Shown: one piece after another, positions 1-58,217 of the stretch
How the letters are laid out: each line of letters opens with the position of its first letter
Numbering within the stretch: position 1 is the stretch's first letter
Assembly: GCA_905178155.1 (NCBI GenBank)
Contig: CAJINV010000004.1
Location: forward strand, 8,145,239-8,209,238
Direction of reading: 5' to 3'
DNA: 64,000 bases
Source of the DNA: Amoebophrya sp. A120
Taxonomy: Eukaryota; Protista; Dinoflagellata
The notes under the pieces: model-generated
Seen by the model: only the letters and a program-made list of their open reading frames with translations
Told to the model about the DNA's origin: nothing
Databases searched by the model: none
Position numbers and translations under genes: made by a program

Positions 1-3000
1 TTGCAATGCATAGACCCAACGGCGAATCTGCTCGCCCCGTTACAAGAGCTGTTGGACTCGGGGAAAGTGCAGTGGCGACAGACGATCGAGGGCGAGATCT
101 GCGACCAAAGGGAGTACTTGCTGATGTCGGACGATAAAAATTCTATCACAGACGACAACCATGGCAGCAACAGCAACACCACAAAGTCTTTTTTAGAAAA
201 AAACGACAACACCTGCAATTTGGTTCAGATCCAAGACTACAAAACGTCATTGAACAAGCTCCCGACGAACCAGACCTTCGACATTTTACTTGCCGATTTC
301 CGCTACACGAACTGCGAAGAAGAGCTAGCTGTTATCGTAAGGAAAAATCCCCCCTCCCCATCTTGAAAAGAAAATTTGTGATGCTGATTTGTGACCACAA
401 ATCAGCTTTGTCTTGCGTACAAGGCAAACGGCACCCATGTGGCGCATTGGAAAGCGAGTCTGTCATCCGTTTTCGCCTATGGCAGACTTGTTTCCCATGC
501 TCATCTGCTAGCCGGGTGAGTAGTCACATGGGCTCAGAATCTGCCGGCAACCTGTTGCTGCAATACAAAGCTCATTTGTGTACACAAATCCAGCAACACA
601 AATTGTCTTTTGAATATGAGGTGGAGCTTTTTTCACTTTGATAGCCGCCCTCGCCTCCCGCTGCCACGGAGTTCTACTGCTCGCGACGCTGCATATCAAA
701 TGCAAATATGTCTGGGTCTGGAAACTTGTGATGCTAAAACGTGGATGATAGAAACAGTCCCGAATGCAACCCAGCATGACAACTTTCTAGAACGCTTTCT
801 CATAGGAAATCCGCATGAGAAACTGCGTTTTTGTATGTACAAAAGAGGCCGCGACTTTTGCTGGTTACGCAATACAGATTTCCTAGGTATCGAAAGCAAG
901 CATTACAAGTTCCAACCCTCCAGACCCAGACATATTTGCATTTGATACTGCACAAAGTCGAGCAGCTCCCCGGGTTCGAAAAGTCGGATTTGCTGGACAG
1001 CGTCCGCGCGGAGGCCCTCGGTTTTTTCACCTCCAATGGCGACCGGGAGCCGGAAAGGACGAAATCTATCAAATGCAAAAATGTCTGGGTCTGGGAGATC
1101 GCGAGACTTGTCATGCTACTCTGGCATGACACTGGAATCTGTGTTGCGTAGCCGCATAGAGCTCCTCTTCCTTGTCATGCAAAAACGCAGTTTCTCATGC
1201 GGAGGACGCAATTCAGAACCACGAAAAAACTTGTCATGCTTGGCAGCGCATTACAGCGTGCTCGCTATTCCTTTCCTTGCATCACAAGTTTCAAGACCCA
1301 GACATATTTGCAATGCATAAAGTCCCATTGGAGACGAATGCGGGCGAAGGGGGTGGCGCACTTGGAGAAGCAAACGATCCACAAACACCAGTTTTTCCGC
1401 AGTTACCTTTATCAAATGCAAATATGTCTGGTTCTGGAAGGGTGTAAGTTGTAATGCTGCATTTGGATTCCAAAAAAAATCTGTGTTGCAGGAATAGCAA
1501 AAGGGGTGCGTTTTTTGCCACGCGGAGGGAGTATTTCTCATGCAGTATGGGCATCAGAAAGCCGTCACAATATCTGTGACGCTAGGGCATGCATCACAGA
1601 CATCGCCGGTGATACAAAATGTGCATGACAAACTTCCAGACCCAGACATGTTTGCAAGGTCAGTTCAAATTTCAGTACATAGTTCCTCTCATGCTCCATG
1701 TCATAAATGCTTCCCGATAAATCGATGATCTAGTAGTACTTTACTTTATTTACCTATAGCTCATGATGATTCTTACCCGAATGCTATAATAGTTGTTAAT
1801 CTAGTTTTTAATGCGCATTTGGGGGAAGGGTCATGAACGGTAGTAGTGTCAGCGAATAGTAGTGAGCATGCACCCACGGTGTGCTATTCGCACGGCCATG
1901 GCACTACTGCGCGAGCACCCACAGGCTCCCAGGTGCCTAGCGCTTTGGCCAGCGTAGCACCTCGGTAGAGCTTGCGGGACCCCGTGGGCAGAAGTTCATA
2001 GCACCCAATTTGTACGTTGCGCAAGTGATATTATAAGTAGTAATAGTTAGTTCCACCGGTGGACATATTAGCATGCTTAATCTCTCTCTAAATAGTGCAA
2101 ACACGTAGTTCTCTTTTATTTTCTTTCTTCATAAAGTTCAAGTCGTTCTCTTCCCTGTGCTGTACCAAGGTCTTGTTTCCAGACAAAACACCAGACATGT
2201 TTGCAATGCATAACCTCTCTGTCTGGGCGAAACAAGAATTCGCGGAAACGATCAAAAAGAACTACTCCCCCACGACAGAGGACAACTTCGACAGTTTGGT
2301 TCCCGACTTTGACAATGCAAATGACGAGTTATTCCTCTCCCGCCAGGGCTCGGCGGTTTCCGATTTGTACCGGGAAAAATCCGGGATGGTATCCGGAGGA
2401 AAAACGTCCCCACCCAGAGAGTCCTCAAGCTGGGGATTTTGCAGTACGCAAACCCACAGGATTTGGCTGTCGGGCATGACAAGTTTGGGTCTCTTGTGTA
2501 GATAGTCGTGGGTGGCTAGTTCTGAGGTCACATCACAAATCTAGCTCCTTATCCTGATTAGCGCAGGAGTCCTGCGCTAAAAAACATAGGAGTCATGCAT
2601 ATTTGGGACTTTGTCCTGCGGCAGGACAAAGTCCCAAATATGCATGACAATAAATCTGGGGTGGGGACGTAGTTTTTCCCAACGATAGGTGGCTGCTGCT
2701 GTTGGTCAACAAGTGAATCACAACCAGCAAACGACCGTGTACTACCAGGACGACAGCATTCTCGCCAGCTACTACGAGTTTCACTTTGGAAAAGTCCTCC
2801 CCCTCCGCGTCCCTAACTTCCCCGCGGCGACGTCTTCCTTTTGCTTGGAAATGTGCGAGAAATACGGTTCGAAATTGAATCTCGCGATGGACGCGGGTTG
2901 CGGGCCGGGGAGGTCGGCCTTTGAACTGCTTGCCGGAACAAGGGGTGGTGGAAACAGTGGCACCAACGGGTTTGCGAAGGTGGAAGCGTTCGATTACGCG

Positions 3001-4037
3001 GAAGGGTTTGTGGACATGCTGAAGCAGGAGCAGGCGAGGCTCGGTATTCCGGAAGAAAGATTGGCATCCTACCAGGGCGACGCGCATCTGTTGGCGGAGA
3101 TCTGCAAGAACCCGTATTGGATTTTTTTTTTGCTGTAAGTTTTCGGTAGGCTTTTTGTCTTTGTCATGCAAGAATTGCATGTTGGGTCGTCTTTCTGTTG
3201 CGGGAACTCCAATACACGTAAAAAAACAGCCTCGGCACCTACGATCTAGTCTCCGGCTGCAACTTGATTGACCGATTACACGATCCAATGCAGTATTTGC
3301 AAGCGTGCAAGAAGTTGGTGAATCCTGACAAAGGACTCATCATTCACTGCTCACCGTACACCTGTTATGCAAGCAGAGGAATAGGATTTTGTACCGGACT
3401 GTCCGGTACATTAGAGTAAAGAAAGAAATTGTCCGACAATTCCTTTCTTGACTTTGTCATGCATAAAACCATCGGCTTGCGACTTTGTTATGACGCAGTG
3501 ATCCGTGATACGCATTCTGTTTTCCAAAACTTCGTGGCAAAACGCATCACAATAAGACAATTTATGACGTCTCCGAACAAAATCCTCCCTCCCGCCCCCG
3601 TCATACTCCGAAGCCCGAGCATACGGAGATCGAGAAGTGGGTCGGCGGGAAATTCACGCCCCAGATGGAGAAGTTGTTCACCGAGCAGGCGTTGCAGGAG
3701 TTTATGGAGAAGGATAACGAATTTAAGCTTGTCGAAACCCGCAAGATCCCCTTTGTCATCCCCGATACGGATGGCTCATTTCAATATCGCAAGAAAAAAC
3801 TGCTTCACTGTAAACTTGTAATGCAGAAAATGGATCTGAGAAGTATCTGTCTTGGTACATATGCAAGACAATGGATTTTCACCTGTGTTTTTCATTAGGA
3901 ATCTCGCATGGCAAATTTTCTCGGTGCTGTAGAACAAACTTGTGATGCAAAACTTGCAAAACCCTTACAGTGTAACACTTTTTCCGTGCGATATTCAATT
4001 TACGTTCTCGAACGCCACGGTTTTTCAGCGGATATAG
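1..4037 (+). CDS. OvoA-like (ovothiol biosynthesis) protein, 3' part, with two tandem SAM-dependent methyltransferase domains; 5' end lies outside the window; 8 introns
   Basis: Joined exons read ...LQELLDSGKVQWRQTIEGEI...HQFFRSYLSVW (degenerate MTase). They continue YYQDDSILASYYEFHFG..VPNFP..MDAGCGPGRSAFEL..YQGDAHLL..YDLVSGCNLIDRLHDP..SPYTW.PEHTEIEKWVGG..IPFVIPDTDGSFQFTFSNATVFQRI*, matching the OvoA C-terminal 4-mercaptohistidine N-methyltransferase. There are 7 TIR introns and one GT-AG intron (3114-3229). Confidence 0.8.
333..643. mobile_element. Introner family B
   Basis: TATCGTAAGGAAAAATCCCCC...TTTGATA; DR gctgt/gccgc; frame restored. Confidence 0.8.
694..947. mobile_element. Introner family A
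   Basis: TATCAAATGCAAATATGTCTGGGTCTGG...CCAGACCCAGACATATTTGCATTTGATA; DR ctgca/ctgca. Confidence 0.95.
1067..1319. mobile_element. Introner family A
   Basis: Family A TIRs; DR aaatc/aagtc. Confidence 0.9.
1410..2212. mobile_element. Introner family A carrying a nested 533-bp insertion
   Basis: Left TIR at 1410, right end TGCATA at 2212; DR acctt/acctc; frame restored (RSYL-SVWAKQE). Confidence 0.85.
1658..2190. mobile_element. Insertion flanked by a 16-bp duplication, inside the right TIR of an introner
   Basis: CCAGACATGTTTGCAA at 1642-1657 and again at 2191-2206. Confidence 0.65.
2390..2687. mobile_element. Introner family C (internally rearranged, with two palindromes)
   Basis: TATCCGGAGGAAAAACGTCCCCACCCAGA...TCTGGGGTGGGGACGT..GATA; DR gatgg/ggtgg. 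Confidence 0.85.
3366..3605. mobile_element. Degenerate TIR intron (singleton)
   Basis: TATG..GGATTTTGT..CGGA / TCCGAACAAAATCC..CATA; DR degenerate (cctgt/ctccg); interrupts the conserved SPYTW motif. Confidence 0.7.
3785..3993. mobile_element. Introner family F
   Basis: TATCGCAAGAAAAAACTGCTTCACTGTAA...TTACAGTGTAACACTTTTTCCGTGCGATA; DR ttcaa/ttcaa. Confidence 0.9.
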
Positions 4038-5233
4038 ATTATCGTCGGTTTCGTGGTTTGTTTATTTAGTAATTACTTACGTATTTTCTGAGTTGAGTAT
4101 TGTGACTGCAATCGGCATCCTCCACGTCCTGCTGCTTGCGGCCTATGCTGGTATGGAACAGGAACTTTTTGGCCTCGACTCGTGTGCAGGAGTAGAATCT
4201 CTCGATTATGTGAATGTACTAAATGGTAGGAACGCATTTGTTTAGGAATTATGAAAAGAGCACAAATTTATACTTTTGCCTCCGTGGAAGAAAACTAGGA
4301 CGATCGTGCCTTGATGCACTGGATCGTTTTTTTTACCGCGATAGAATCCAGTTTCACTTCTTTTTTCCGACATGTTTTTTCCTCTCAATGATCGCACTAA
4401 ACAATATACTCACTGCCAAGTAATTATCCTCCGTCCTGCGCTTCGATATTAATAACTCTGATTGAATACCGTTTTCCATCGATAAGACTTAGATTATCCA
4501 ATCTCGATATTATTGGCCACCAGTTTTAGACTCCTCCAGGCAATAACGGCCTCGAGGTACGTAGTTGCGAAGGTACATATGTCCCTGTATACATGCGGTT
4601 GCAGGTCAATAACCGTTCAAAAAAACATAGGAAGTCATGGCTCGCAAGTCTAAAACGCAGGTGTAGTAACTTGTCATGCTGGGAAAATACTACAGCGGAC
4701 CGCCTGGTGTTGACTTCGGCATGGAACTTCAACGTCAAGGTAACTTCAAGTCGAATTTTTTCGTAGGGAAGATTGCTACTCTGAGATGAATTTGTGGTTG
4801 TGGGAACCGTCATTGGGGTATCTTTAACTTGTATCTCACTTCAACATACAAGATGTTTGATGAAAATCAAAACTCCTGTCCTATGCAGGAGCTTTCATCT
4901 CAGCACATATTTACTTCGTTGTTCCAAAATGCGACTCGGATGGTCGAGAAAATCTTTTCGTTCTTGGTTCGATTCACTGACAATTGAGATCACAAATGAA
5001 TTCGCTCTCCGTAAAGCTTTTCTGCTGCTGGGTTCCGAAAATAAATGCATCCATTTCAAAGACCGCCACACTCTCAACATCGATGTAAATGCGTAGCGCG
5101 TATAGATCGACCTTGCTATTCGCACCGGTTGTAAGGAGATCACGACGCATGATCTGTGATGCAAGTTCATGTGGTCCTTAGCATGCTGATTCGAAATGTT
5201 TTTGATATTTGCATTGCATGTTGGAACCTTTTC

Positions 5234-5255
5234 AACGTAGCCATTTTCGCCCAAG
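5234..5255 (+). other. Dinoflagellate spliced-leader-like sequence (relic or SL RNA exon)
   Basis: AACGTAGCCATTTTCGCCCAAG versus DinoSL DCCGTAGCCATTTTGGCTCAAG, 19/22 identical. Confidence 0.65.
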
Positions 5256-5283
5256 GCCCGCCAGGATTCAAGTCACAGAATCT

Positions 5284-5397
5284 CATCTATGATAGTTGCA
5301 ATCAATTTTAGTGGTATACCTAACTTAAGTACCTATCGCAGAGTCGCATCTACGATAGTTGCAATCAATTTTAGTGGTACACCTAACTTACGTACCC
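5284..5397. repeat. Tandem duplication, 63-bp period
   Basis: CATCTAYGATAGTTGCAATCAATTTTAGTGGTAYACCTAACTTA.GTACC at 5284 and 5347. Confidence 0.9.
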
Positions 5398-5582
5398 TGC
5401 TCGCTGGGGGAGCATATCCAATTCAACGCACAACGGGACGGCAAACCTCTTCAATTTGTAAAGCGCATTTCCTGTCAAACTCAAAGAGCTGCTACGCGTT
5501 CTATATCAGATCGAGGCGGCCTCGACCAATTTGCTTACTCCGTACGTATCTACAAGGTTCTTGATATTGTATATAAGTAATC

Positions 5583-8500
5583 ATGTGTGTGCCTTTCTAT
5601 CTATACTTTGTAAGTCCTATGGCGGTAGCCGCTTCCACCGTTTATGCTTCGGCGTCGGCTTTCCCTTGGGATGATCATGGCGGTGTGGAACCAGGCGAAG
5701 CCTTCGATTGTAACGCTGCGGCTTTTGCTGCGGGGAGCGTGCTACGGGAGTATCTGGTCCGCTTCACGACCAAGTCTTCAGCATCGTCGTCCTCGTCTAC
5801 TACTACTTTGACATCTTTCCCTTTTGTACAACAACTGGGGACCAGCTCCAGGCCCGTGACGTCAACACCCTCGACCCCCACTACACAATCTTCTATCGTA
5901 AGGAAAATAATTAAATCCCCCCTCCCCATATCGCAATTTCCTGATGCTGCAATTATTGGCCCAACAGACTAGACGTTTGCCATGCTCAGCGCCTAGCCCA
6001 AAACGACCTCTCTACTCCTCAGGCTTAGTATAGGCCTTTACTACTCTCCAGCAAGGCAAAAAATTTTGCGACAACGTTATATTTAATACAACTGCTGCGT
6101 CAGCAGGAGATGAAACTTCGTTTTGATAGTACGGGTAGGGGGGAGCGGGAAAAATTTTCCTTTTGATACTACCAAGAGCAGCTACCTTGGCATTTCTATC
6201 GCAGTCGCTGCCGCCTCAGCTCGTGGACGATCTCAACAACTATCCTGATTAAGAACGTACCCACACCAGAGTCAAGATGGGATTTTTGCAACACAAACCT
6301 AGGAGTTTTGGGAGTCACGCATAACAAGTTTCAGTCCGTAAGGTAGTGCAAGTTAGCAAGGAAAGCCGCATCACAAATCGATCTGCTGATCCTGTTTACA
6401 GCATTACAAGTTCCCAAACACGCTTGAAAATGCCTGTCATGGGGTTGCGCATCACAAATGTTCCTGTCATGGCAAATCTGCATGACAACTCTGGTGTGGG
6501 TACGTTTTTACTCAGGATAACAACCGTCCCTTGTTTAGGGAAGTCGGCACCTTCGCGGACCAGGACCGGACGTCGTATGCAAATGCTGGCGCTCACCAGG
6601 ACCAGGACCTAACCTCTATCGACGACCAACTCGCAGCTGAGACACTGGTGTTGCGAATGGGTGTTCTCGTCCGAGAAAAGCTGCCGAGTGTCCTCCTGTC
6701 CGCGAAGATATGGGGAACGTCGTGGTCGGGGGTGATTATAGAAGACGACTCTACGAGTGGAGAGGCGTCGGGAGACGAGAGCAGCCGCGGCCCTCGCGGT
6801 ATCGAAAGGAAAAATCCCTGACCCTCCCCATATCAAAACGGGATTTCTGATGCTGGATTTTTTGTGTACTACACAAATCAGCTTTGTGTTTGTACTTATT
6901 GTAGAGAGGCACTGCAGCCAGATCCCCCGGCTAGGCAGGGGCGCATGGGTCTAGTTTTTCAGCATGACAAACGGCTCCCCTTTGGGCCGAACAGCATGGA
7001 AAGTCGCTCTCTTAATGGGGCGGAAGGCTTCTGCCCTTGTCTTTCTGCAAGATAAACGCGATGTGTGGCCTCAAGTCAGCGAGGCAAATTTTCGGACACG
7101 GGACTTTCAAATATGGGGAGGGGGATTTTTTCTTACGATACGCGGCTTGCCATCTTCTGCAGGTGATTACGGTTGTGCCGCCGGTAATCCCCCCTCTCCA
7201 TATCGAAAACGAAATTTGTGATACTGTATTTGCGTACACAAATAATGCTAGAAGGCCAAGAAACGCAGCTGTGGCCGCCTCGTTTGCAGACAATTTGTCA
7301 TGCTGTTTCCCACTTCCAGCTGCCCCCTGTCATGCTGAAGATGCAAGGCTTTCCAACGCTAGTAACCCACCACAGTCCGCATCTTTTCCCTTTTAGCATG
7401 ACAAAGCTGATTTGTGGCCACATATCTGCATCACAAGTTTCTAGTTTGAGACAGGTAGTTCAAGTTCGCTACGGCGGGCCGCTTTGCTGTCCCCAGAGGA
7501 GACGTACCTCGACGTCAGTAGCATCCCCGAAATGCCTTTTGAACCGTCGTGCACGCGGCTGCTACACTGTCAAGAACGCGCCCGCCAGCACACAAATCAA
7601 CAAGCCGGTCAGGTTCAGGCGGTCGCTCTGGCGACGACCACCCGCCGCCGCACCGACGAGTACGAGCGAGACGAACACATCAGCAGGAGCAACATCACGC
7701 GCTCCGTCCGGCAAGTGCAGGTGCGGCCGCACGGGCGCCCGGGTAGTAGAAGTCGAAGGCGAACAAGCCTTCGCAATTCTAAAGCGGCCTTGGCAAATGC
7801 AATGCTTCGTGAGGTTGTGAGCGTTGTCGTGGGGGACGCGTGGGCCGCACTCAGTGTTGAGGCGACCAACCCTGTAACGCTTGAGGCCGTGGTCGGTTCG
7901 GCGCGGAAGCTGCGCGCATTTCTCCGGGCGGTGGCCGCGCTGTTCTTCACGGCCGAGTGGAGAGTCTCGATGCACCGCGGGACCCAAAAACAAGAACAAG
8001 AACAACGCAACATCCTAGACGACGCAGAAGTCCTTGCAGACCGCGTGAAGGCTGACCTCCTCGGCGCTCTTGCATTCGCAGACACGACGCTCGTTTTCAA
8101 CCCCGATAACAAGCTGACGCGAGGCATCCGCGGTCCGCAGAGATGGACCGGCTCAGCCACCAGAAGCGTTGTCTGGAAATACCAAAAATTGTTGAACAGG
8201 ACAGGCTATCAAGTGCAAATATGTCTGGGTCTGGAAGGATGCATGTTTGATGTTGTCATGCTTGATATCTAGCATGACTCTTCAATCTGTCCTGCGCGTT
8301 ACTTACTTACCCAAGAGCCCCATTTTGATCTTTCTGTCATAGAGAAATGCAGTCTGTCATGCAGAATAGGCAACACCTAGAACAAGCTCAGAAACTTGTC
8401 ATGCTGGGCCAGCACTTGTGGCTTCCTCATGATAAGGACCACGACACCCAGCATCACAAGTTTATTTTCCAGACCCAGACATTTTTGCATTTGATACAGG

Positions 8501-15700: not shown

Positions 15701-16051
15701 AATGCGAGAATAAGAAAGCAGGGAAACCTGTCACGGAAGAGCCCAAAGCATGCAGCTTCGTGCATGCAAGACAGTTCGCTTGCTGGCGTACTTGTTCATT
15801 TTTGCATATACGAATGCGACACACTCTCTTTTTCTGTGTGATAAATTTCTGTGAGTGAATGCAAAATACCACTACAACGCTTCCGGACAGGCGCGAGCAT
15901 CTTAGCATACAAAATAAGCAATTCCGATTGCGGTCTTGTTGCACAACCCAATAATGTCATTACTTAGTTACGATCGGGGTCTCATTACTTGCGCAATTTT
16001 TACCAATGATGGTGATGCTGATTTTGCAGCAATTGAACTGCTATGTACGTA

Positions 16052-16450: not shown

Positions 16451-18170
16451 CTATAGCACTTAGCCGCACTGGAGCTCGTGCATGAGAGAGCCATAAAGGG
16501 CACAGTTAGAGTACATTACCTTCAGTACCCAAGGTACGATTTTTTTTCAAAAATGCCCGGGTTATCGCAGCATCTTAATGAATACGTCGCGACCTGGTCG
16601 ACGGGGCGGTTTCGACAAGTAAATTTGCGGGTGCTCGAGCTCGTGCTTCAGGCATGCATGACAAAGATGCTTTTCAATTTCATCATGCAAAAACATCTCG
16701 CTTCTGCATGGAGAAAAACGCAACAGGTCCGAAGACAACCAGTTTCGTCGAATGGAATGGAGAAAATGCACCAAGTTCTGCGATGAATTCGCCATTTCTA
16801 CACGCACCGGAACGGGGTGTTGCTAATTATGCTGAGTCGCTACCGTTTCGCCGACCAGGACCCGATTACCCGATTCCAGCAAGGACTAGTACAAAGCGGC
16901 AGCTTGCGACGCCGTCAAGTTCGAGTTCAAGTCGGGTCTCAAGTTTTGCTAATACCGACAGCGGGCAAGGGTTGTCGGCAGTGACCGGCGCGGACAAGAG
17001 AGTGACAGCAGGTACAGGTGGTTTTGTGTTGTGGTCCGTGCATGAGCTCGTTTTGTATGTGGAAACATCCAAGGCCTTCGGCGCTGTTGAGAACCGAACC
17101 GAAACTCTAAAAAAAAAACAGGTGCGGGGAGATCGAGGAATACAGTGGCGTCGCATGGAACGCAAACAAGTGGTGGTACCGCAGCAGTGGACGCAACTAG
17201 CTTCAGATGGGGGTTTCCCTTCTTACGATCGAGTATCAAACGAAAATCATAGATATGTTCTTTGATTGTTTTTGATGACAATAGCAACACAGCCAATGTA
17301 TCAGCATCAATCTTCTTCACAACCAATCGGAATTAATTGGAAATTTCCCATTCAAGTTAGTTGCACTTTTATGCGCACTGTAGCAAAACCCCAGAACTAC
17401 AAAATTGGTTGAAGTCGGTAACGACGCGTGGCATGGAGTATTCCATTGGTGCTGCCCCGTGTCGCTGTTGCATGCGTTTGCCTCGGGTGCATTTCAGTAG
17501 GCCTCATCACTCACGCTTCGAATTTTCACAAATCACAGGTAAACCGGCAAAACCTACTCCCCCGGAGGATCCGCCACTATCAGCATGAAAGGCGTTCACA
17601 GGAAAGGGGTTTGCGACGCATTTTTGCAATCGACAAGTGCATACAAACCTGAAGCCAGGATACACAAAGGAAAGACGCTTCTTCAAGAAACAAAACGACT
17701 CCCAGTTCAATATTTATGTGCGGCTAAAATGGTTCTCGGAAATGTAGTTAAGATGAATCCAGCTGAGTTGACAAATGATCTGGTAGTGAACATTTTTCCT
17801 GCTGAAACAGGAACATCGTCAAGATTGATGGAGACAAGTTGCTGTTCGGTGGCAGGGATTGTGCGCGAATCACAGACGTCAGTACGTGTCGTGCCTCTGG
17901 AAATGAAAACCCAACACCCGATGACGGGGCGGCGCCTGATGCTACCGGAGAAGTCCGCGACGTGCTGTGCGTGACGAAGCAGGAGGGGTGCGAAAATATA
18001 CAGCTTTTCAACGTGAACCTCTGTTGGAATGCAAAATCTAGGTGGGCAACAGTGTGAAGAGATCAAAAAACCAAACTCTCCACAGGGGTGAAGACGCTCT
18101 GGGCATATGCGAGCAGCCGGGACCACCACACGTCGCCAGCGAAGACCACATACCGACGCCAGCACCCGCT

Positions 18171-20009: not shown

Positions 20010-22117
20010 ATGCAGAAAATTTGGGACCGCCTGCCCGACGCGGATGATTTTTTCGCGTACGACACCGCGATAAGCATTGCAAATATGTCTGGATGTGGAA
20101 GAGTTCATCCAACTTGTCATGCTAAGTCTGGATCGTGCGAAAATCTGTCTTGCGTCATCACCGAAAGTTGCACTTTTTTAACCAACACGAGAGGGAGTTT
20201 CTCACGCAGGATATGCATGATAGAGACCTCGCAAAATCTGTCATGCTAGGCCCTGCATTACAGAGCTCCTTCGGCCTGGAAATTCTGCATGGCAAGTTTG
20301 TGTCCTTCCAAAGGACCAGGACATATTTGCATTTCATACGCGAAGGAAGTCCGTGTCCTCGACCGGCGGCTGGGGCTGGTTTACTACACGGTGTTGAACC
20401 TCATCCTCTTCTACGTGTTGATCTACGTTTTCATGATCGAGAAGAAGTACCAGGAAAACGAAAAATCTATGGGCTGGGTCGTCTCCCGGGCCAGCGGCTA
20501 CAGTAACTTGGAGGAGGCGGCGAAGCAGGCCGCACTCCCACCCTTGGACTTGTTCGACTTGTCCGGGTATGAATTGCAAAAATGTCTGGGTCTGGAAGAT
20601 TGCAACTTGTCATGGTAAATCTGAAGCATGCAAAAATCTGTGTTGCATGAGTGCCAAAAGCTGTGCACTTTTGACCAAGTTGGAAGGGAGTTTCTCATGC
20701 AGGATAGGCATGGCAGAGACCTCGCAGCGTCTGTCATGCTAAGTCCAGCATTCCAGACCTCATGGGTCATGGAAAATCTGCATGACAAGTCTACACTTCT
20801 CCAGACCCAGACATTTCTGCATTTTATACCGGGCCGGGGGCGAGCTCGGAAGGGGAAGTGAACGCGGCGTTTTTGCCGACCAGGGTGCTGTACACGAAGG
20901 GACAGGAGAACAAAAACACCAATTCCGACGCGGACTTCTGCGCCAGTCCGTCGCACCCCTGCACTTCCCCGGCAGATTGCGAGATTGAGAACCCGGAGCT
21001 GCAGAAAGGTATACTACTACCACATATGCTTGATGCAGCAAAGTCAGCAATAACAAAGCTGTCTGTCATGCGTGTTAGTACTAGACAGCACGTGACAAAA
21101 ATACTCAAATCCTCCTTCAAACCCACACCACTAGGTGACCAATGCACCGGCGGTTTCTGCATGCGGCGGCAGTGGTGCCCGGCGGAGTGCGACCCGGTCG
21201 CGAACCCGAGCTGCGCCACGACCCAGGAGCTGCTGATTGACCCGTCGGGCTACGAGCTGCGGTTCCAGACGTCCGTGCACTTTCACAAGTTTCAGATGGA
21301 CGTCTCAACGATGGAAGAAAAGGAGGCGATTGTGTATCCGAAAAAAAAAGCAAACGTGTACAAGCTCCGGGATCTGCTCCGAATGGCCAACGTGGACACG
21401 AAAAAGGTGCAGAGCCACGGTGTGGTGATACTGGTGACGCTGGTATGGGAAGGGAAGGTTGCATGTATTCAATTATTTGTGTTGCATGTATTCAATTATG
21501 TGAAACTTATACAGCATAAGTGCGGTCCAAGTTTGTACCAAGTTTGTCATGCAAAAACTGTTTGAGGAGGACTGGACAAAAACGTATTTGCACTGCAGAA
21601 ACACAAATTTCTTCGTTCTCCATACGATCTCTTTGACTGCGAAATGGACGATGACACGTGCTCCAGTAAATTGGAGTCCGTCCACGTGGACAGCAAAACT
21701 GGGTACTGGGGTTTTTGTCATGCAGAACTAGTAGAGTGGTTGGCGTTTGTCATGCAGAAAACACAACATTGCGGTCTGCCTAAGCTTCGTTTGTGATGCG
21801 GCATCTGCATGAGATGAAAGAGGAGTTTAATTATTCAAAAATAACGTACCTACAGGTACAACTACGCGCGCTCCGTGTACTACAGCGACGCTAACGTTGA
21901 AAAGCGCGATCTCGTCCGGTTTTTCGGCGTCCGGGTCGCTTTGCAGGCCGTTGGGGACGGAGCGAAACGGAGTTTCAGCATGATCGTGCTGCAGGTGTCC
22001 TCGGCTATTGCACTTCTCGCGGTCGCGCGCACCGCCGCGGACTTTTTTCTGGAAAAGGTCGTGCCGGAGAGGAGGCACTATGTGGCTCAGAAGGTGCTGG
22101 AAGTGGAGGACTTTTAG
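20010..22117 (+). CDS. P2X: P2X-type ATP-gated ion channel, 5 introns
   Basis: FFAYDTAKEVRVLDRRLG (YxTxK), TM1, EKKYQ, FCMRRQWCPAE, LFDCEMD, GYNYARSVYY, RDLVRFFGVR, TM2 and YVAQK (YxxxK). Confidence 0.9.
20071..20338. mobile_element. Introner family A (degenerate, left end TAA)
   Basis: Family A-like TIRs; DR cgcga/cgcga; splits the YDTAK motif. Confidence 0.9.
20568..20828. mobile_element. Introner family A
   Basis: Family A TIRs; DR ccggg/ccggg. Confidence 0.95.
21444..21624. mobile_element. Degenerate TIR intron (singleton)
   Basis: TATGGGAAGGGAAG...CTTCGTTCTCCATA; DR lost, but removing the element plus 5 nt restores VTLLFDC. Confidence 0.65.
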
Positions 22118-23333: not shown

Positions 23334-26300
23334 ATGGCGCGGCCGGTGGACGAGAATGACCTGACCAACGCCATTATCAAAAGGAAAAATCCGCCCTCCC
23401 CAGATCGAGAAGGAAATCTGTGATGCTGGATTTGCGTACACAAATCAAATTTGTCTTGCAGTACAGGACTGCAGGCCAATATCAAGCCAATATAGAGGGG
23501 TTTTGGCCTAGGCAGTTAGCATGAGGAACGTCTATGCTGTAGGCCCAACAGCATTACAAACCGCCTGCGTGATAATGGGGTGGAGCATATGCCGTTGCTT
23601 TCTTGCAACACAGACGCGATTTGAGGCCACAGATCAGCATCACAAATTTTCTGCGGCGTGCCTTTTTGATGTGGGGAGGGGGGATTTTTCCTTACGATAG
23701 CCATGGACCTGCTTCGGCAGGAGATGAACTCCGTGCAAGACAAGGCGTTGAAGCTGGTACAGAGTTGCTGCTTGTCGTGCGTATGAACGTAGCAGAAAAG
23801 GAGATTGTCTTGCATTGTCCGCATAGTAGAAACGCATCGTTAATACAGAAGTACCCGCATGACAACCCAAAATGATCCGACAGGTCGACAAGAAGATGGG
23901 TGGTATGATCACGGAGAAGGCAACAAGCTTGATGTCAGTTATGGAACACAGAATGGTTTGTTCTTTTCAACATTACAGACTTATTTTGTACAGTCTGAAG
24001 GTTGCATGACTTCTCGCTCAGCATGACAAACTTCATCACGCAATGTCAATGACATCGGTCAGCATGACAAAAAACTCCGAAAAGAAACATCAAACCTGAT
24101 TTCTATTCCATACCCGACGTGATGACGTCCGTCGATGCGAAGCAACAGAAAATGATGAAAACCATCGAGGCAAAATTTAACTCAACGGAGAAAGCGATAG
24201 GGATAAAGATAAAAGAAGGCGACGACAGACTCGGCGACAGGATAGACGACACAAATCGGGAATTAGCAACAACAAGACACGATTTGGCGAGAAATGTATT
24301 CATACGTATGGAGATTTGAAGATTTGATGTCGCCTCTTCAACCGCATGACAGATGACAATTGTATATGCGTAAAGAACTATATTACCACGACTGTAGAAG
24401 TAGTAGAGAAATTGAATTTTCCAGGTGCAAGAGCTGAAGAACATGATGGCAGAGCTGCGGCAAGAAACCCAGGACTCCCTCAACGACTTCAGAGAGCACG
24501 TCGACGCCGCACTGGCACAAGCTAACAAGCAGGGGGAAGACACGGCGAAACGGTTAGAAGAGGTCAACCAGATTTTGGAAGACGCCCTCGCGGAGATGAG
24601 AAAAAACCACGACATAGTGAACACGCGATTGGACGGTATGGATTGGTCTTTTTGTTGAATTTTATGTTGCGGGAGAATGGAAGTCAAACACTGCATGGTG
24701 TTGGAACATTGGGTTAAGTTTAGGCGCATGGAGGTGAAAAACAAATGGGCCACATGACGAACCACCATCATACTTATTTCAGGTCTGATCATGTACCAGC
24801 GGCAGCTCGAGCAGGATTTATTCGCGTGTGAAAACGTCGCGGCCAGAAGAGTGGAGTGGGAAATCACGGACGCAAAACGACTCTTGCTCGCGAGCAGAAG
24901 AATAGCACTCGCCTCTACCATATGTCTTGTAAAAATGTCTGGGTCTGGAAGATCGCTGAGGTTTGTGATGCTGTGCCTGCTTGACACGGAAGGTGTGCCA
25001 TGCAAGGCCTAGCATCACAGGTTTTTGAGGCGGTTCGAAAGAAGGTGTTTGTCATGCGGGTTAAGCATTGGGAAACGGGTGTTTTTCCCAATGCTTAACC
25101 CGCATGACAAACACCTTCTTTCGGCGACAGGAAAAGGAGCTCCCTTTGCTGTTTAAGCACGACAGATTTTTGTGTGATCCAAGTGTGCGTCACAAGGTCG
25201 CATCCTTCCAGACCCAGACATTTTTGCATTTCATATACCACCGTGCAGGGGACGCCCAGGCAGTCGTTTTTCTCACCGCCCTTCTCCGCAGCGGGGGTGA
25301 GGAATCTGCAAATCGAGTTGGCGGTGAAATTTAAACAGGCACCCAGCAAAGCCGCAACCAGCGATGTACACATCGGGGAGGCGCACATCTATTTGTGGGC
25401 GCCGAAGGGGACACATGTGTGGTTCAGGCTGTACTTGAACGACATGGTCAAGACATTTGAAGGTATTGGGATGATATTAATGTGTTTGAAAATCACACAT
25501 GTGAACCAGATGAGAAGGGCATTTTCTGCACCACCACAAAAATCCTATCAGGAACCTACCCCTCCCGACAGCCGGTCGGCGGTTTTTTCGGCGACATAGA
25601 CGTGCCAGTCAAGCAGCCAGCCGACGACTTCAAAATGCTGATCACGCTCGAGGTCAGCGAGTCAAAGGTGGTCCAGAGACACGAGATCGCACCCTATGTC
25701 GCGGTGAACGCCCAGGACGGAATCAGCTGCTCTGGAAACCTGTATTTTAGTCGACACGTGAATCACAGGCTGTTGGACCAGGTAAATTGGTGATGTTGTT
25801 CTTGTCCATCTGTTCTACTTTTCATTAAGACCGCTTGTTCATATGTAGTCAAACCGTTGGACCTTCGTCAACCAAAACTCTCAAGATCCGTTCCTTGACC
25901 AGGAGGAAATCGAAAACCTCTAAAATCTGCACCATGGAAATTCCATTAGATCCTTTTGAAAAAGAACCGGAGCGGTTATCTCACTGAAGCGAATTTTCCC
26001 AGTTTCGCGCTAAGTGTCAGGCCGCTCCAAAAATGAATCTCTTGCCTAGTTTCTTAACTGCTTCGGCTCTTTTTCGTGCTGAATCCGCAGTTGCTTAGCT
26101 AGGCGACACTGATCTGTGATTTTAGCTGTTATAGTTCTGCTACACAGAGGAACTGGTACTACAGCCCCAGCACGGTTGTGGTGATGTCCACCAACATGAT
26201 TATTACCCTTTTCAAGGCTTAATCTTTTCCAAGATTCAAAAGTCTGTGACGACCAAAACACTGAGACATACGTATGACTTCCGCACTATCAACACTCTTT

Positions 26301-40032: not shown

Positions 40033-42700
40033 ATGCCAAAATGCAAGAACTTCCTCCTGCCTAAGAACTCTTTCCCCGCCTGTTATACCCTGCAGTCCAG
40101 CAGCAGTAACGAGCCTGCAGACGACTCGCGAGGCGGCCCACCGCACCAGAACCCTCCGTATCAAATGCAAAAATGTCTGGGTCTGGAAGATTGCGAGATT
40201 TGTCATGCTTGTCTGGCATGACCAACAAGTTTGTAATGCGTGTTCAAGAAGGGATCCTTTTGCCTGTCATGCAAAAACGCAGGTTGTCATGCGAAAAACG
40301 CAACACAAAAAAGCGCAGATATTTCTCATGCTTGCCGGTGCATTACAGAGCATTCACTATTCCCAACGCAGCATTACAAGTTTCCAGACCCAGACATTTT
40401 TGCAATTGATATCCCGCCGGGCAACACGATAACGCAGGCCGTGATGCTGCCACCCGACTTCTTTTTCGAGTCCTGGCACCACTATGACACCGACGAGTTC
40501 TTATCCTGAGGAAAAAAGCCCCCACCCGATAGTTGTCATGCAGAGTTGCATATTCCAGGAAAGTATGTAATGCGCATCCCGCCCATGAGGGGCGTTTGTA
40601 GTCGTGTAGTTTTCGCATTTGCACTGCTGTTAACAGGATGAGCAGATGGATTTGTGACGCGGCTGCCCTCGCTCACCTGCACTACAGTACAACAGAGAGA
40701 AGCTTGTCATGCGTGACTCCCGCAGCCGCTGGATTTGTGTTGCAAAGTTCCAACCTTGAGTCCAAGGTGTGGGCTCCGTTTTTGCTCCGGATAGTTCTGC
40801 CCCCAGGAACAGGAAAAAGCCGCACTGGAGGCGCTACGACAAGCGGAGGAGGAAGGGGTGGATGAGATGCATTTACGAAGTATGGGATGGGGAGGCATTT
40901 TGACTAGGTTTCAGCAGTCCCCTTGCAAGAAAGTTCTAGTCCTTGATATAAAACGGTTGTATGTAGTTCTTGTTTTGCAGCACGAGCAATCATTATCGAA
41001 AAAACATGTGTTTTGAGATCAGCGCCAAGCTAGCCAAAGTCGTTTTCCCCATTCACACTCGGGCAAAAAGAGCAGCACGAGAGGACAAAAAGGGGTGAGC
41101 AGGAGCCGATGATCGCACTGAAGGTACCATTTCCAGTATCCAAGAAAAAAACTGTGTAAGTGCGACTTTGTGTTGCAGACGATGCAAGACGATTACAACT
41201 GTCATCCTGGACATGCATTAGACGCTGTTTTCGCACGTGTTTTCACGTACTAGGTACGCATGACAGGTTTTCTCTGTCATGCAGAGCAAACTTGTGATGC
41301 TGTTTTTTCCAAGGAAGTTACACTTACACAAATTTTTTCTTGCATATCAAGCAGGAGGCCGCGCGAGCAAGTACCCAAGAATAACCTATAGCCTGCCGAC
41401 AGGTATGAGATTTATTGATGCCACAGGTTGTTATTGTTTGTCTTCACATTTTGTTCCAACCGATCATGTGTTGCTTTGTCATTCATGTTCCTCCATGCCA
41501 TGGCAGATGAGGCTCCAGAATTTCTAAATTCGATCACGCACGAAAGCAAAATGATGGAATTATCAACTACATACAGGTCACAACTACAAGAAAGAAGACG
41601 TCGCGAGCATGCGTGCGGTGCACAGTGTATGGGAAGAGTGAAAAAAATGGTTGTGCCAGACATATATTGTTCATCATAAGTCGCAAATTAGAATTTGCCC
41701 GCGGCTAAGAACTCGAACTTTGTCATGCAACTCCTAAATGTCAAGATCTATGTGACAGCCCTTTGAGAGGAGATTGGAGCAGTTTTTCCAGTCCATACAC
41801 ACTCTACACGGCGTTTCGGCAAGACACCTCTTTCTGCCACAAGTACCGGATCATCGGTTCCGCGCTGCACCCAAAATACCCCGGCACGCTCCTGGTATTA
41901 TACTGCTTTTTGTAGATAGTTGTTGAAAGAAATTGAAATTTGTTGTTTTCTCCCCTTGTGTTTGTGATGCGGATTTTGCATGAGGATTCTGTAATGCGTG
42001 GACGTAATTTCAGTGCCAATTCTCAGGTTCTCGTGCACGGTGAAGACGAGCACTAATATGGGTATCAAATGCAAAAGTGTCTGGGTCTGGAAACTTGTGA
42101 TACTGGGTGGCGTATCATGAGGAGGCCACAAGTGCTGGCTCAGCATGACAAGTTTCTGAGGAGCTTCTAGGTGTTGCCTATTCTGCATGACAAACTGCGT
42201 TTCTGCATGACAGAAAAATGGGGCTCTTGGATAATGTGCACGACAAATTCAAGATTCATGTGAGACAAGCATGACAAACTTGCATTCTTCCAGCCCCCGA
42301 CATTTTTGCACTTGATAATGGCATTGAAAAAGCAATCGGTCTCCTTTCAGCTCGTACATATGATTTAGCAAGTCACCATCCGGAATAATTCTCTTCTGTC
42401 ATGCAGTCGTGCATCACGATAAGAAAATCGGTTTTGTTGTCAATCTATTAGGAGCTGAGAAAGAAAAAGCCGAGTAGTTTTTTTCAACCCCACATTCCCG
42501 TACCAGAGTACTGGCCCGAGCACGTGAACCATGCTATGCAGCCGCTACCCATGGTGTCTTGCCGTTATTTCTACTGCATGGAAAAAATGTAGTTGCACTT
42601 TGTCATGCAGAAATACCGGCAAGACAAACACCTCTTCTCCATACGTTGCGATATGGAAATTTGCCAGGAAACCTATAACAAGCACCCAGTGGACAAGAAT
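40033..42700 (+). CDS. Hypothetical multi-exon protein (many short exons; ends uncertain)
   Basis: Frame restored across the 40159 and 40502 elements (PGNTITQAVMLPPDFFFESWHHYDTDEFCPQEQEKAALEAL); later exons such as LYTAFRQDTSFCHKYRIIGSALHPKYPG. Confidence 0.5.
40159..40411. mobile_element. Introner family A
   Basis: Family A TIRs; DR ctccg/tcccg. Confidence 0.9.
40502..40793. mobile_element. Introner family C
   Basis: Family C TIRs; DR gttct/gttct. Confidence 0.9.
42063..42317. mobile_element. Introner family A
   Basis: Family A TIRs; DR atggg/atggc. Confidence 0.9.
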
Positions 42701-54300: not shown

Positions 54301-57300
54301 TCACAGGTCCTGCAGCTCCTTGGTGATGCGTATTCTGCATGAGAAATGCCCTCTCTGCATGGCCAGAAGTGGGCACCTTTTGCACGTTCTGCATGACAGA
54401 TCTCTGTAGGATCCGAAACACGCATCACAAGTTCGGATCCGTCCAGACCCATACATATTTGCATTTGATAGGCTCGAAAATCACACGACCGGCGTACCTG
54501 GAAGGGATCGATTCGTGTTTGACCGGTAGTAACAAACGGCAGTTGATTCAGCAAGCCGCGATCCACTACTTGAAGCGAAAAGGGGCGAGTACCTTGGAAA
54601 AGATCCTCCAGTTCAACAGCGCGTGCCTATTGTGAGGAAAAATGTCCCCTCCCCGTATTGAAAGCGCATCCATCTGAAAACTTGTGATGCAGATTTGTGA
54701 CCACAAATCGCGTCTGTCTTGCAAGAAGGCTGTCCGAAACGTTATGCAGGCGATTTGTAATGCTGTAGGGCCGACAAGGCAGCCGTCTGCCGTGCTAGGC
54801 GCCTACACCAAAAGGCCCCTACCTAGGCTTGCGATCTGCGTGCAGTGCTCTAGTGCAACACAAATTTGATTTGTGTACTCAAATACAGCATCACAGATTT
54901 CGTTTTCTATATAGGCAGGGGGGATTTTTCCTTTTGATAGTGCTGGGGCTTCCCTTTCAACCGAGCTGTGCGGAAAGTTACGGTGCTGGAGCTGCGGCGG
55001 AGCGGCGCGTTCCCGTACATTGTCACGTGGAAGAAGCAGCAGGAAGTGAAGCAGGCGAATGGAGGAGACATGAATCAGCCCGACGCGAACGATGCGGTCG
55101 GCAAGGTCTTGGCGAAAAGTGGGGCGACTTTGACGGAACTGATGGCGGCGCACAAGTCAACCCTGATACAGACATTCAGCTACCCAAGCTTACAGCAGGC
55201 GATCGTGAGCCATGGGACAAACTTCTTGCGCCAACAACCACTGGCTGTAAAGACTAGTGGTACCGTGGCATACACCAGGACGAGCAAGGCGAGGTATGTG
55301 CTTTCCTCCGGGATTGGAAGATCATCGCAGCTGTATAGGACCCAACCTCCACACGAGATGAACAAACAAGCAAACAAAGTCCACCTGATGTCGAAGTTTT
55401 CGAACCAGCAACATGCAACTACCTCAAATAGAACTACTGCATCAAACGCAACTGCGCCACCCACCACCACTATCCCACGAAGAAAACTGTTTCACTGTGA
55501 TGATTTTGCAAGGTCTGCATCACAAGTTTGTTACGCATGACAGAGAAAACTTGGCATGCGTGCTTCCTAAGGGAAAACACAGCTAAAAATCCCATGTCTT
55601 GCATGTGTAGCAAGACAAATAGTTCTGTGTTCCATTTTCTGCATCACAGGTTTACACTGAAACAGTTTTTTCTTGCGATAATCACCATTTCCTCCCTCCC
55701 GGCCCTGTACGGCAGCCAAACGAGCTATGGAAGCGTCAGGATTGAAATCGTCAAAGTTGAAATTATTTGTGATGCATAAAATCGATACCAGCTGGAAGCC
55801 CAATTTCCCAGCGGCGCATGACAAATTTCGGCACCGTCTAAAGCCAGTTTGTCATGTTGTTTAGGGACAGAAGGCGCCTTTTGTCATGCTACTTTAGCAG
55901 CTCTATTCCAACCCCGAAACAGGCTCACAACCAGCCTCATTTGCCATCCCTGCAAGAGAGGCACTTCATGCCTTGCAATTTCTGCATGAGAAATTATTTC
56001 AACTTTGAGGATTTCAATCCTGACGCTTCCATACGAGCAGTCCTGAGTACCGCCTGCAAAAATTCCTCCTCACACCCTTCACTTGGTCGGATAAGCAGAG
56101 CTTACTCTCCGAAACTTGCCTCCGGTTCGCCTTTATGCTGCACAACGTGAAAGACCGCATCGCGGACCCGCGGGAACGGAAGCAATTCGAAAATTTCCTC
56201 CAGAAAGAACTCGCCGGGAAAAACTTGTGGCTGCTGCAGGCATTGTATGAGAGTGCACAATCCCCGTCCCCCTGATTTGTCATGCAAAGTACAAAGTTGC
56301 GCCTGGCCTATAGGCACTGTCTGCATGAGAAGTTCACTGGCAGCTCAAATAGCACTACAATCCTGTGCAAATTTGTCATGCAAAACCTGTATTCTTGCTG
56401 GCGCTTGTCCTGCCGTTTATGCAATACAAATGGGGGGGAGGGGGGCTATGTGCACATTCATACGTTGAAGCTCCCGATGATGCACCAACTGAAGGAGTTC
56501 GACGCGAATAACGGGTCGTATTACCTCCAACAACCGCGGCTCCTCCCCTATCACATGCAAAAATGTCTGGGTCTGGAAACTTGTAATGCTAAAAGTGGAT
56601 GATAGCCGGACTGCAATACGCAGCCAAGCATGACAAATTTTTGAGCTGCTATGTGTTGCGTATTCCGCATGAGAAACAACGTCTTCACATGACAGATAGG
56701 AGAGCCTTTTCGTGCCCATGCATCACAGATTCTCGAGTCTGTAGTGTCAGACATGCATGACGAATGTAAGAATCTTCCAGACCCAGACATATTTGCAATC
56801 CATATTCCCTCCGGCGAGACGAATTTCGCACGGCTCGCCCAGTACCACGGTTTACCCATGCCCGAGCCAAGCTGCCTGGCGAAAGCGGCGTTGCGAAATC
56901 AGCAGAGCAAGCGCCCGCTGCTGCTCTCGTCGTCGACGAGGATGCTGAATAACCCAGAGCTGTACAACAAAGCCCAAATGACCGGGTTTACCCCGGGCAT
57001 GAACCCGGATCTACACAAAGAACCGGACAAGCAGAAGCTGGAAGAACAGGCGGCGCGCATCGCCGCGAAGTCGTGGCTCGAGAAGTGCATGAACGTGCTG
57101 GGGCACATGCGGCTGGAGGCGCCGCACGATTACAGCAAGTTTGACGTGAACGTGCTGAACCAAATCCGGTCGCAGTACGCGTCCGAAGGGCCGCAGAAGG
57201 TGGAAAAGTTCATTCAGAAGTACCAGAAGACCATCCGGCCAAACCAACCGATCGACTTGATGGAGATCCGGACGAAACTGAAAAATTCCAACCCCCGTAT

Positions 57301-58217
57301 TGTGAGGAAAACTCCCCCCTCCCCGTATACTTGACAAGGCATTATTCTGAACATTTGTGATGCAGATTTGTCGTCGCAAATCATTTCTGTCTAGTGCAAG
57401 AATGCATATGTAATTGCCTAGGCCTGCGCCGCATCATGGAGGCGATTGGTCATGCTGTTGGGCCTGCAGGGCTGGCGTAAGTACTTAGGCGCTTCCCATG
57501 CTAAACAAGGCTAGGCCACTACGCTCCCAAACAGGCCAACAGTCTGGCTGCAGTTCTTCCTTACAGCAAGACAGTCCGCATTTGTGTAGTGCGCAAATCC
57601 AGCATGAGAAATTTCGTTTTTGGTATGGGGACGGGGGGTTTTCCATTTTGATACCCCGAGCGCTGAAAACGGCGCAGACGGAAGCGGAGCACATGGTGTC
57701 GCAGCAGGGCCAGTACAATATCAAATGCAAAAATGTCTAGGGCTGGAAGATTGCCAGGTTTGTCATGCATTTTTTGCATGACGCCTGATTGTTTGTGATA
57801 TATGCCCTAGCATCACAGATTTTTAGAACCCTAATGCCTATTCCGCATGAGAAATGCCCTCTCCGCGTAACACAAACTGGAGTCCTGTTGCTGGTCATGC
57901 AATACAGACTTTTTTGGAATCCGAAGACAGCATTGCAAGTTGCAATCTTCCAGACCCAGACACTTTTGCAGTTGATATGCAAGAACGAGCTGCAATTTAA
58001 ACAGGACATCAAAATGATGTTTGAAAACTGCGATCGCTTCAACCGGGACGAGAAAAACACCTTCCGGCAGGCGGGAAAGCGACTCGAGGAGATTTTCGCC
58101 CGGCTCTGGGTAGTTTTCTTTCCACCCGTCAAGCAACATGGGAGTAGCCTGAAGATTGCGGGCGCGCCGGTGGCGAAAAAGAGGCGACCGAACTCGGAGA
58201 GCGAGTCGGAGTCATGA
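45315..58217 (+). CDS. TAF2-like (M1-aminopeptidase-fold TFIID subunit) protein with a C-terminal bromodomain; 21 TIR introns
   Basis: NFVFLP..IYGRNFVCLDLSFL, GWITAGLYLYLADLIEAKILG and SVRRAAIKALVDL resemble TAF2. YQKTIRPNQPIDLMEIRTKL..YKNELQFKQDIKMMFENCDRFN..AGKRLEEIF is a clear bromodomain. The start may be the ATG at 45411. Confidence 0.7.
45608..45869. mobile_element. Introner family A
   Basis: Family A TIRs; DR atcga/atcga. Confidence 0.95.
45949..46255. mobile_element. Introner family B
   Basis: Family B TIRs; DR aatgc/aatgc. Confidence 0.95.
46686..46937. mobile_element. Introner family A
   Basis: Family A TIRs; DR cgcag/cgcag. Confidence 0.95.
47155..47417. mobile_element. Introner family A
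   Basis: Family A TIRs; DR aagcc/aagcc. Confidence 0.95.
47951..48230. mobile_element. Introner family C
   Basis: Family C TIRs; DR cgagc/cgagc. Confidence 0.95.
49455..49733. mobile_element. Introner family C
   Basis: Family C TIRs; DR tcctc/tcctc. Confidence 0.95.
49796..49955. mobile_element. Introner family I (about 160 bp)
   Basis: TATGCATTGCAA..TACTAGTAT...CGATACTTTTG..TATA; DR gcgtg/gtgtg; similar to 61593. Confidence 0.75.
51072..51335. mobile_element. Introner family A
   Basis: Family A TIRs; DR gccgc/gccgc. Confidence 0.95.
51403..51686. mobile_element. Introner family C (right end ACA)
   Basis: Family C TIRs; DR cgggg/cgggg. Confidence 0.9.
52223..52502. mobile_element. Introner family C
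   Basis: Family C TIRs; DR acgcg/acgcg. Confidence 0.95.
52793..53046. mobile_element. Introner family A
   Basis: Family A TIRs; DR agctg/agctg. Confidence 0.95.
53094..53354. mobile_element. Introner family A
   Basis: Family A TIRs; DR ggaag/gcaaa. Confidence 0.9.
53578..53884. mobile_element. Introner family D
   Basis: TATGGAAGCGTCAGGATTGAAATCGTCAAAGTTGAAA...TTTCAACTTTG..ATCCTGAC..TCCATA; DR caaac/caaac. Confidence 0.95.
54208..54470. mobile_element. Introner family A
   Basis: Family A TIRs; DR ggctc/ggctc. Confidence 0.95.
54628..54939. mobile_element. Introner family B
   Basis: Family B TIRs; DR gtgcc/gtgct. Confidence 0.9.
55471..55680. mobile_element. Introner family F (reverse orientation to 3785)
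   Basis: Ends CAGTTTTTTCTTGCGATA; DR accac/atcac. Confidence 0.85.
55726..56033. mobile_element. Introner family D (reverse orientation to 53578)
   Basis: Family D TIRs; DR cgagc/cgagc. Confidence 0.95.
56246..56462. mobile_element. TIR intron (singleton)
   Basis: TATGAGAGTGCACAATCCCC...GGGGCTATGTGCACATTCATA; DR cattg/cgttg. Confidence 0.85.
56549..56804. mobile_element. Introner family A
   Basis: Family A TIRs; DR tcccc/ttccc. Confidence 0.9.
57298..57653. mobile_element. Introner family B
   Basis: Family B TIRs; DR ccccg/ccccg. Confidence 0.9.
57719..57977. mobile_element. Introner family A
   Basis: Family A TIRs; DR tacaa/tgcaa; inside the bromodomain. Confidence 0.95.

Follow-up and report, generated by a model that had tools for sequence, protein, structure and literature searches.

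Introners of Amoebophrya sp. A120 that have TAT-ended inverted repeats, a 5-nt target duplication and ends other than GT-AG have already been published (Farhat et al. 2021, PMC7789003), as part of a picture in which tens of thousands of introns are without a splice signature. In that account the splice sites are "variable" relative to the hairpin, their border is "unknown", and the repeats are placed 1-5 nt from the splice sites; Table S4 gives NT-NN for nine of the nine top A120 site classes and TT-NN for nine of the nine top A25 classes. Nearly all spliceosomal proteins are reported for A120, together with U2, U4, U5 and U6, while U1 was not detected, and 98.6% of the intron positions common to A25 and A120 are canonical (PMC7789003). 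The A120 Prp8 carries the identifier GSA120T00009175001. The deposited A120 gene models were built from transcript alignments, and section 25 of the same paper, which describes this, does not describe an N-TAT rule. Searches of the open-text literature (without figures or subscription papers) returned no statement of a fixed register for Amoebophrya introners, and the passages of PMC12130899, PMC12005148, PMC11453091, PMC12787238, PMC9860276 and bioRxiv 2020.10.14.339549 that came up likewise contain none. Such a rule is nonetheless partly anticipated, because Table S4 of PMC7789003 already has T at +2 in all top classes, and the logos in its Fig. 3 and Figs S19-S23 may hold part of it.

The window analysed here, a stretch of 64,000 nucleotides of A120 DNA, contains dozens of TAT...ATA-bounded elements of 200-350 nt with 5-nt flanking repeats. 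The flanking repeat is perfect in 33 of the 54 elements listed, and one more was mis-indexed. Exon 56810-57295 is 100% identical to a deposited A120 protein and a second deposited A120 protein maps to 39.9-44 kb; these two, P0001 and P0002, match at 100% over their exons.

A non-canonical intron in an OvoA-like gene

The intron at 3365-3609 is a decayed introner, and it is informative because decay has left its two flanks different from each other. The features of this locus are as follows.

3114..3229, + strand: canonical GTAT..CAG intron of the same transcript (RNA joint)
3230..3364, + strand: upstream exon of an OvoA C-terminal-like (thiohistidine N-methyltransferase-like) gene (X2 contig; TIGR04345; PDB 9bxl, 9bxh and 8khq)
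3361..3365, + strand: left flank CCTGT, four nt exonic and the fifth being intron +1 (sequence, RNA joint)
3365..3609, + strand: non-canonical intron T-TAT...ATA-CTCC, 245 nt, a decayed introner (RNA joint; open frame with Trp)
3366..3368, + strand: TAT, intron +2 to +4, left end of the former terminal inverted repeat (sequence)
3603..3605, + strand: ATA, intron -7 to -5, right end of the former terminal inverted repeat (sequence)
3606..3610, + strand: right flank CTCCG, four nt intronic and the fifth being the first exon base (sequence, RNA joint)
3610..3783, + strand: downstream exon (joints 3364/3610 and 3779/3994; frame)

The original prediction placed the cut at this element so that four bases of the left flank are joined to the fifth base of the right flank (4|1), and the RNA joint falls exactly there: a transcript-type contig of run X2 (depth 631.6, short side 30 letters) runs from 3364 straight on to 3610, the joint having no ambiguous letter, so that an intron with the ends TT..CC is removed from RNA without GT-AG. 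The join forms the expected TGG codon from the four left bases and the one right base, within the open frame SPYTWKPEH. The Trp had been called conserved; it is common, with SPYTW also in 8khq, but not invariant, since 9bxh has SPYTL. The description of CCTGT and CTCCG as direct repeats did not hold. They agree at one of five places, and the flanks at 21444 at none of five; both pairs are therefore decayed flanks and not direct repeats. One X2 contig with a non-canonical joint also skips the GT-AG intron 3114-3229, and the run therefore behaves as spliced RNA.

The methyltransferase-like gene matches TIGR04345 with an E value of 9.7e-06, below the curated cut-off; its OvoA C-terminal/OvoM-like thiohistidine N-methyltransferase coding region corresponds to window positions 2217-4030, and its exons sit in a 6083-nt transcript contig that reaches further upstream. 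TAT and ATA are still present in the intron, though its terminal duplex is no better than shuffles (z +0.5); as a whole the intron folds better than shuffles (z -2.4).

A single register across RNA joints and proteins

The RNA evidence covers 2200-22199 and consists of contigs, not reads, from runs X1 and X2, which are guessed to be RNA; the raw-read runs X8 and X9 have three reads each on this region. X1 and X2 gave 15 listed joints, with three more beyond them. Among the joints listed, four are GT-AG introns, four fall within repeats (8227/8467, 8235/8387, 9061/9142 and 9075/9577; short side 20-23) and were not used, since they probably stem from other copies, and seven are non-canonical, an N-TAT cut being possible at all seven. 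One joint with letters between its halves was also set aside. Junctions of P0001 and P0002 were all derived from the proteins alone, with every exactly translating cut enumerated, and P0003, an orthologous transcript protein (84%), was used as well. The introns placed in these ways are the following.

1409..2216, + strand: 808-nt non-canonical intron T-TAT..ATA-ACCT (X2 loose end)
2389..2691, + strand: introner intron G-TAT..ATA-GGTG, cuts 2-5 allowed (joint 2386/2690; X1 and X2)
5893..6172, + strand: introner intron C-TAT..ATA-CTAC, cuts 4-5 allowed (joint 5892/6173; X1 depth 7.8, open frame)
17577..17811, + strand: non-canonical intron C-TAT..AAA-CAGG, uniquely placed (X2 depth 20.8, zero ambiguity)
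21443..21628, + strand: probable GT..AT intron of a P2X-receptor-like gene (homology)
23939..24116, + strand: TT..CG intron, cuts 1-4 allowed (P0003)
40880..41061, + strand: GT..CG intron with ACA as its right triplet, compatible with cuts 4-5 (P0002)
41627..41801, + strand: GT..CA intron, uniquely placed (P0002)
42056..42498, + strand: AT..CC intron A-TAT..ACA-TTCC, uniquely placed, with element 42063-42317 nested in it (P0002)
42534..42647, + strand: CT..TT intron, uniquely placed (P0002)
54627..54943, + strand: introner intron, 5|0 cut excluded (P0001 has CW, not CR)
57718..57981, + strand: introner intron of a bromodomain gene, cuts 2-5 allowed (P0001 has Tyr)

The joint 17576/17812 (CT..GG) has the same geometry as 3364/3610 and ignores an AG one base earlier. 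At 1409-2216, the X2 loose end before 2213 is window 1375-1404 and is followed by 2213-2386 without other letters (join 1404/2213); the fifth flank base comes from the right copy, which excludes a 5|0 cut. This 808-nt intron, spliced in X2, is about three times the usual element length. The joint 10046/10382 allows cuts 1-5.

In the proteins, TA at intron +2/+3 is possible in 26/26 junctions of P0001 and P0002 (23 with TAT), and other offsets fit fewer, offset 3 in 21/26 and offset 1 in 20/26. The junction 42955-58/43151-55 fits only as TAC..ACA, and at 43200 a nearby AG is passed over. Several elements with mismatched flanks had been singled out beforehand. The CW (not CR) of P0001 at 54628 is consistent with a 4|1 cut, which is also among the cuts 1-4 to which P0003 restricts 23940; at 57719 the bromodomain Tyr was said to need the left copy, and the deposited protein reads GQY; at 21443, proposed as GT...AT and with zero RNA depth, the P2X frame is open and the hydrophobic-then-Leu pattern of the closest homologue favours cuts after flank base 3 or 4. 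The junction at 53094 is uninformative at the protein level, and 42063, put forward as an exon junction, lies inside the intron 42056-42498 in the deposited model. For 42063, 53094, 54628 and 57719 the evidence comes from deposited proteins only. These models are not circular with respect to the register, because they were made from transcript alignment; they and runs X1 and X2 may perhaps not be independent of each other, as the same RNA could underlie both.

Five junctions are uniquely placed, two by RNA and three by protein. Their +1 bases are T, C, G, A and C and their last two bases CC, GG, CA, CC and TT, whereas TAT at +2 and A at -7 are found in 5/5; against the marks of U2-type introns, there is no fixed GT or GC at +1/+2 and no AG at -2/-1. 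Of the six registers, only register 4 agrees with 5/5 informative RNA joints and 13/13 informative protein junctions, the others reaching at most 3/5 and 8/13. If cuts were uniform over six positions, the chance of one common register would be about 0.03 for RNA, 7e-5 for protein and 4e-7 together, figures to be read with the caveat that the anchors of decayed elements were picked after inspection. Fifteen junction predictions were written in advance, of which 12 matched, two failed (42061/42322, which is nested, and 43049/43154, where the deposited model uses another donor) and one fell outside the proteins. The scope is one window, five unambiguous junctions and contigs, with all genes tested on the + strand.

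Within this scope the 4|1 register is supported by RNA joints and deposited proteins alike, and a single register fits the informative joints. The proposal that +1 is relaxed and that no AG is required is supported by the free ends of the uniquely placed junctions and by the AG passed over at 17577. As to the 3' site, put at 4 nt past ATA, the distance stands but the triplet does not, since it can also be ACA, AAA or ATT. The register is real: the element and exactly one 5-nt target copy are removed at one fixed spot, and the pre-insertion gene sequence is therefore restored. Low-frequency variable cuts may also occur at these introns, given that contigs do not retain rare isoforms and that three of the joints fell outside the listing.

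A scan of a metagenome collection returned at least 183 loci (L001-L183), and a related assembly carries the same element family at 81-89% identity in the longest matches. Among the matches listed there are 159 paired elements; the 5-nt duplication is perfect in 130 of them, and 142 have TAT/ATA ends. Also among the matches listed, 92 of 148 copies have a strand margin of 5 or more, with G+1 in 29 and a terminal AG in 9, which is composition-level with no enrichment, and 30 orientable copies divide 14:16; young insertions are therefore unselected for GT/AG and work both ways. Three copies (L030, L006 and L179) that lie in what looks like coding sequence have a changed terminal base, at +3 or -7, the frame of L030 being sulfate-transporter-like by eye.

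Several further observations concern individual genes. The young element 42063-42317 sits within the older non-canonical intron 42056-42498, 6 nt in from its donor end; once the element is taken out in the 4|1 register, the terminal stem of the outer intron forms again, with the duplex going from -6.0 to -9.6 kcal/mol and the fraction of shuffles as good from 32% to 1%, making this a candidate twintron. Downstream, the P0002 model runs through the junctions 42698/42915, 42955/43152 and 43199/43463, and leaves a second GTAT at 43050 unused, while without splicing the frame would stop near 42720; 42699-43956 is possibly a region of alternative or untranslated-region splicing. Two early candidates were rejected: 42652-42748, taken for an element, is exon in P0002, which also contradicts a GT-AG intron from 40880 ending at 41033. 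The P2X-receptor-like gene at 20340-22117 has two canonical and two non-canonical introns.

Sequence, pairing and the splicing machinery

In 34 supported non-canonical introns set in the 4|1 register, all four bases occur at +1, at -4 to -1 and at the exon ends (+1: G12 C11 A6 T5; -1: C10 G9 A9 T6). Position +4 varies twice, -6 four times and -5 once; +2, +3 and -7 never vary, for +2/+3 partly by construction. The A at -7 is present in 34/34 window introns, partly by register choice, and in 90/92 copies of the related assembly. Freedom at +1, -2 and -1 and insertion in either orientation are observed features of the class. It is somewhat more probable than not, in our judgement, that most introns of A120 are removed by a machine that ignores the first and the last two intron bases and measures both its cuts from the ends of the transposon hairpin, be it a U1-less spliceosome that has dispensed with the G+1/G-1 pair in exon ligation or a new parallel nuclear system; if so, an element of this kind makes a perfect intron wherever it inserts and whichever way round. 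As to which machine this is, we lean slightly towards fixed-register removal by a modified U2-type spliceosome positioned by the element ends and not by GT/AG.

Such a spliceosome would cut one base before the opening TAT and four bases after the closing inverted triplet. The left end would supply the donor core, U+2, A+3 and usually U+4, whose TA also occurs in the GTA of canonical donors and which is perhaps read by U6 alone because U1 is undetected. Pairing of the ends would bring both splice sites together, and distance, not AG, would set the acceptor. For the element class, exon ligation would skip its G+1/G-1 check, with stemless introns still needing GT-AG. Ageing elements would lose their target duplication and long stem but keep the register and the terminal TA..A(T)A. 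Against a spliceosome stands the stem over +2 to +20, which would have to open before U6 and U2 could pair. Precedents can be found in the VTATGTT donors and fixed branch-to-acceptor spacing of Giardia (PMC6679479), in the branch A at -6 in Stentor (PMC9505925) and in tunicate non-canonical introns, handled via altered U2AF and U6 methylation (PMC13326754), where loss of U6 m6A favours U+4.

A branch adenosine at -7 found no support. The advance prediction that terminal changes spare +2, +3 and -7 was scored on 11 cases, of which seven agree, three disagree (L006 and L179 change A-7, L030 changes A+3) and one is ambiguous (p 0.17); L021 was scored by the copies next to it and L030 by a transporter-like frame, and the strand classifier is right for 35/37 on the window. 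Agreement in 7/10 therefore does not support this reading. The VCTRACACRCAG 3' motif, of the Giardia type with fused branch and acceptor, is absent from the 3' composition of the supported non-canonical introns, and the window has no snRNA (0 Rfam hits). A family of short motifs (TGTCATGC/GCATGACA, TGTGATGC/GCATCACA and TGTAATGC/GCATTACA) recurs by eye across the whole window, in elements, canonical introns and intergenic DNA and in both orientations, for example at 3161-3170, 3455-3464 and 41720-41730.

A less likely but serious account keeps the same register and assigns it to a spliceosome-independent, structure-guided endonuclease and ligase, a mechanism suspected in euglenids (PMC11282704), which would place its cuts 1 nt and 4 nt away from where the terminal stem ends, the TA in common with canonical donors being a coincidence. 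The full freedom at +1, -2 and -1 and the splicing of both orientations speak for it, as do the changes at -7 and +3 in apparently coding elements and a terminal duplex that is better than 95% of shuffles in 21/21 young, 7/13 decayed and 0/16 canonical introns. Positions +5/-8 are paired in 12/13 decayed introns against 46/92 young copies (p 0.006, confounded by family), and euglenid introns leave as circles, not lariats, according to the review PMC11282704. Several points count against it. The terminal duplex is no better than shuffles in 6/13 decayed introns, 3365-3609 included, and these keep TA..A, so the stem is not the whole signal; half of the young copies are mismatched at +5/-8. Among single-base changes, eight fall on the partners -5/-6 and one on +2/+3 (p 0.02, one-sided; not an advance test, the window cases having been counted post hoc), which hints modestly that TA is read as sequence. 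TA at +2/+3 is also implied in A25, where repeats start TTA (PMC7789003). With top classes of TT-NN in the same paper, a repeat beginning at +1 would again give TA at +2/+3 there. Sequence and pairing both seem to contribute, and neither alone covers all cases.

It is improbable that one spliceosome handles all introns without terminal-nucleotide proofreading, the GTAT donors being the case N=G, as the original prediction had it. All nine donors cited for it do read GTAT, and six are backed as donors: 3114 by RNA, 41403 by P0002, 24636 and 25463 by an exact P0003 junction match, 24296 by alignment to P0003 and 21009 by the open P2X frame. The other three belong to a KH-like gene, in which in-frame acceptors are many for 59995 and 62183, and none passes the filter used for 61811; this gene, at 59200-63035, has several GTAT donors, and its GxxG motifs look KH-like by eye. 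In 16 supported GT-AG introns the donor reads GTA in 15/16 and GTAT in 8/16, and the failure to detect U1 in A120 (PMC7789003) would also suit a general loss. The GTA core is thus common, but the GTAT excess is not significant (p 0.086 against 31% intron T), the terminal stem is absent in 16/16, the exon-final G is kept in 13/16, A is at -7 in 6/16 and ATA at -7 to -5 in 1/16. The stemless introns here are GT-AG, as are the 98.6% of old common positions already mentioned (PMC7789003), which makes a general loss of proofreading unlikely. Canonical introns are a separate class that shares a TA core with the element-ended introns, and it fits better that terminal-base checking is bypassed for the element-ended class and not lost in general.

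Finally, reverse-transcriptase template switching across the hairpin or excision at the DNA level is very improbable. Template-switch artefacts typically arise at hairpins that have short direct repeats, and the runs are only guessed to be RNA, but template switching is disfavoured because the joints at 3364/3610 and 17576/17812 have zero microhomology. In addition, the same run removes GT-AG introns, 3114-3229 even in a contig that has a non-canonical joint too, and the joins restore frames and conserved residues.

Comparison with known intron systems

The elements were known beforehand, and the claim made here is the register, a well-supported rule for a known but unexplained class of introns. 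Farhat et al. 2021 (PMC7789003) describe the same organism, TAT repeats, 5-nt duplication and non-GT-AG ends with variable sites, whereas here a single register fits all tested cases, including decayed elements without a duplication. One positional rule thereby replaces the variable-border picture and lets A120 gene models be corrected; it explains how the elements spread without damage to genes, and it shows exactly where a lariat or a circle should be sought. For spliceosome chemistry it raises a sharp question, namely what allows exon ligation with an arbitrary base at +1, -2 and -1.

The nonconventional introns of euglenids, as presented in PMC11282704, resemble those of A120 in deriving from inverted-repeat elements with target duplications, in their non-canonical ends and, as far as the young A120 introns go, in an asymmetric intronic stem. 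The stem starts at +4/-6 in euglenids, occupying +4 to +6 and -8 to -6, and at +2/-5 in A120; in the same account euglenid junctions prefer pyrimidine|purine, a preference that A120 introns lack, and circles have been shown for euglenid introns. Fritillaria borealis is like A120 in having an element-derived majority class of non-canonical introns beside old introns that are GT-AG. The non-canonical introns of F. borealis are processed there by the U2-type spliceosome, with preferred ends AG-AC and AG-AT and an intact U1. A120 differs in having no constraint at +1, -2 and -1 and in its U1, which has been reported as not detected.

Giardia shares with A120 a relaxed +1 before TAT, in its VTATGTT donor (PMC6679479), and in Giardia and Trichomonas and in the tiny introns of Stentor the acceptor lies at a fixed distance from the branch A (-6 in Stentor). 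The introns of all three keep AG and are without terminal repeats, and A120 introns differ on both counts. The introners of Micromonas, Aureococcus and Symbiodinium have one splice site from the element, one in the target duplication and clean removal, as in A120; those introners co-opt G(T/C/A) and AG, whereas in A120 the target sequence is unconstrained.
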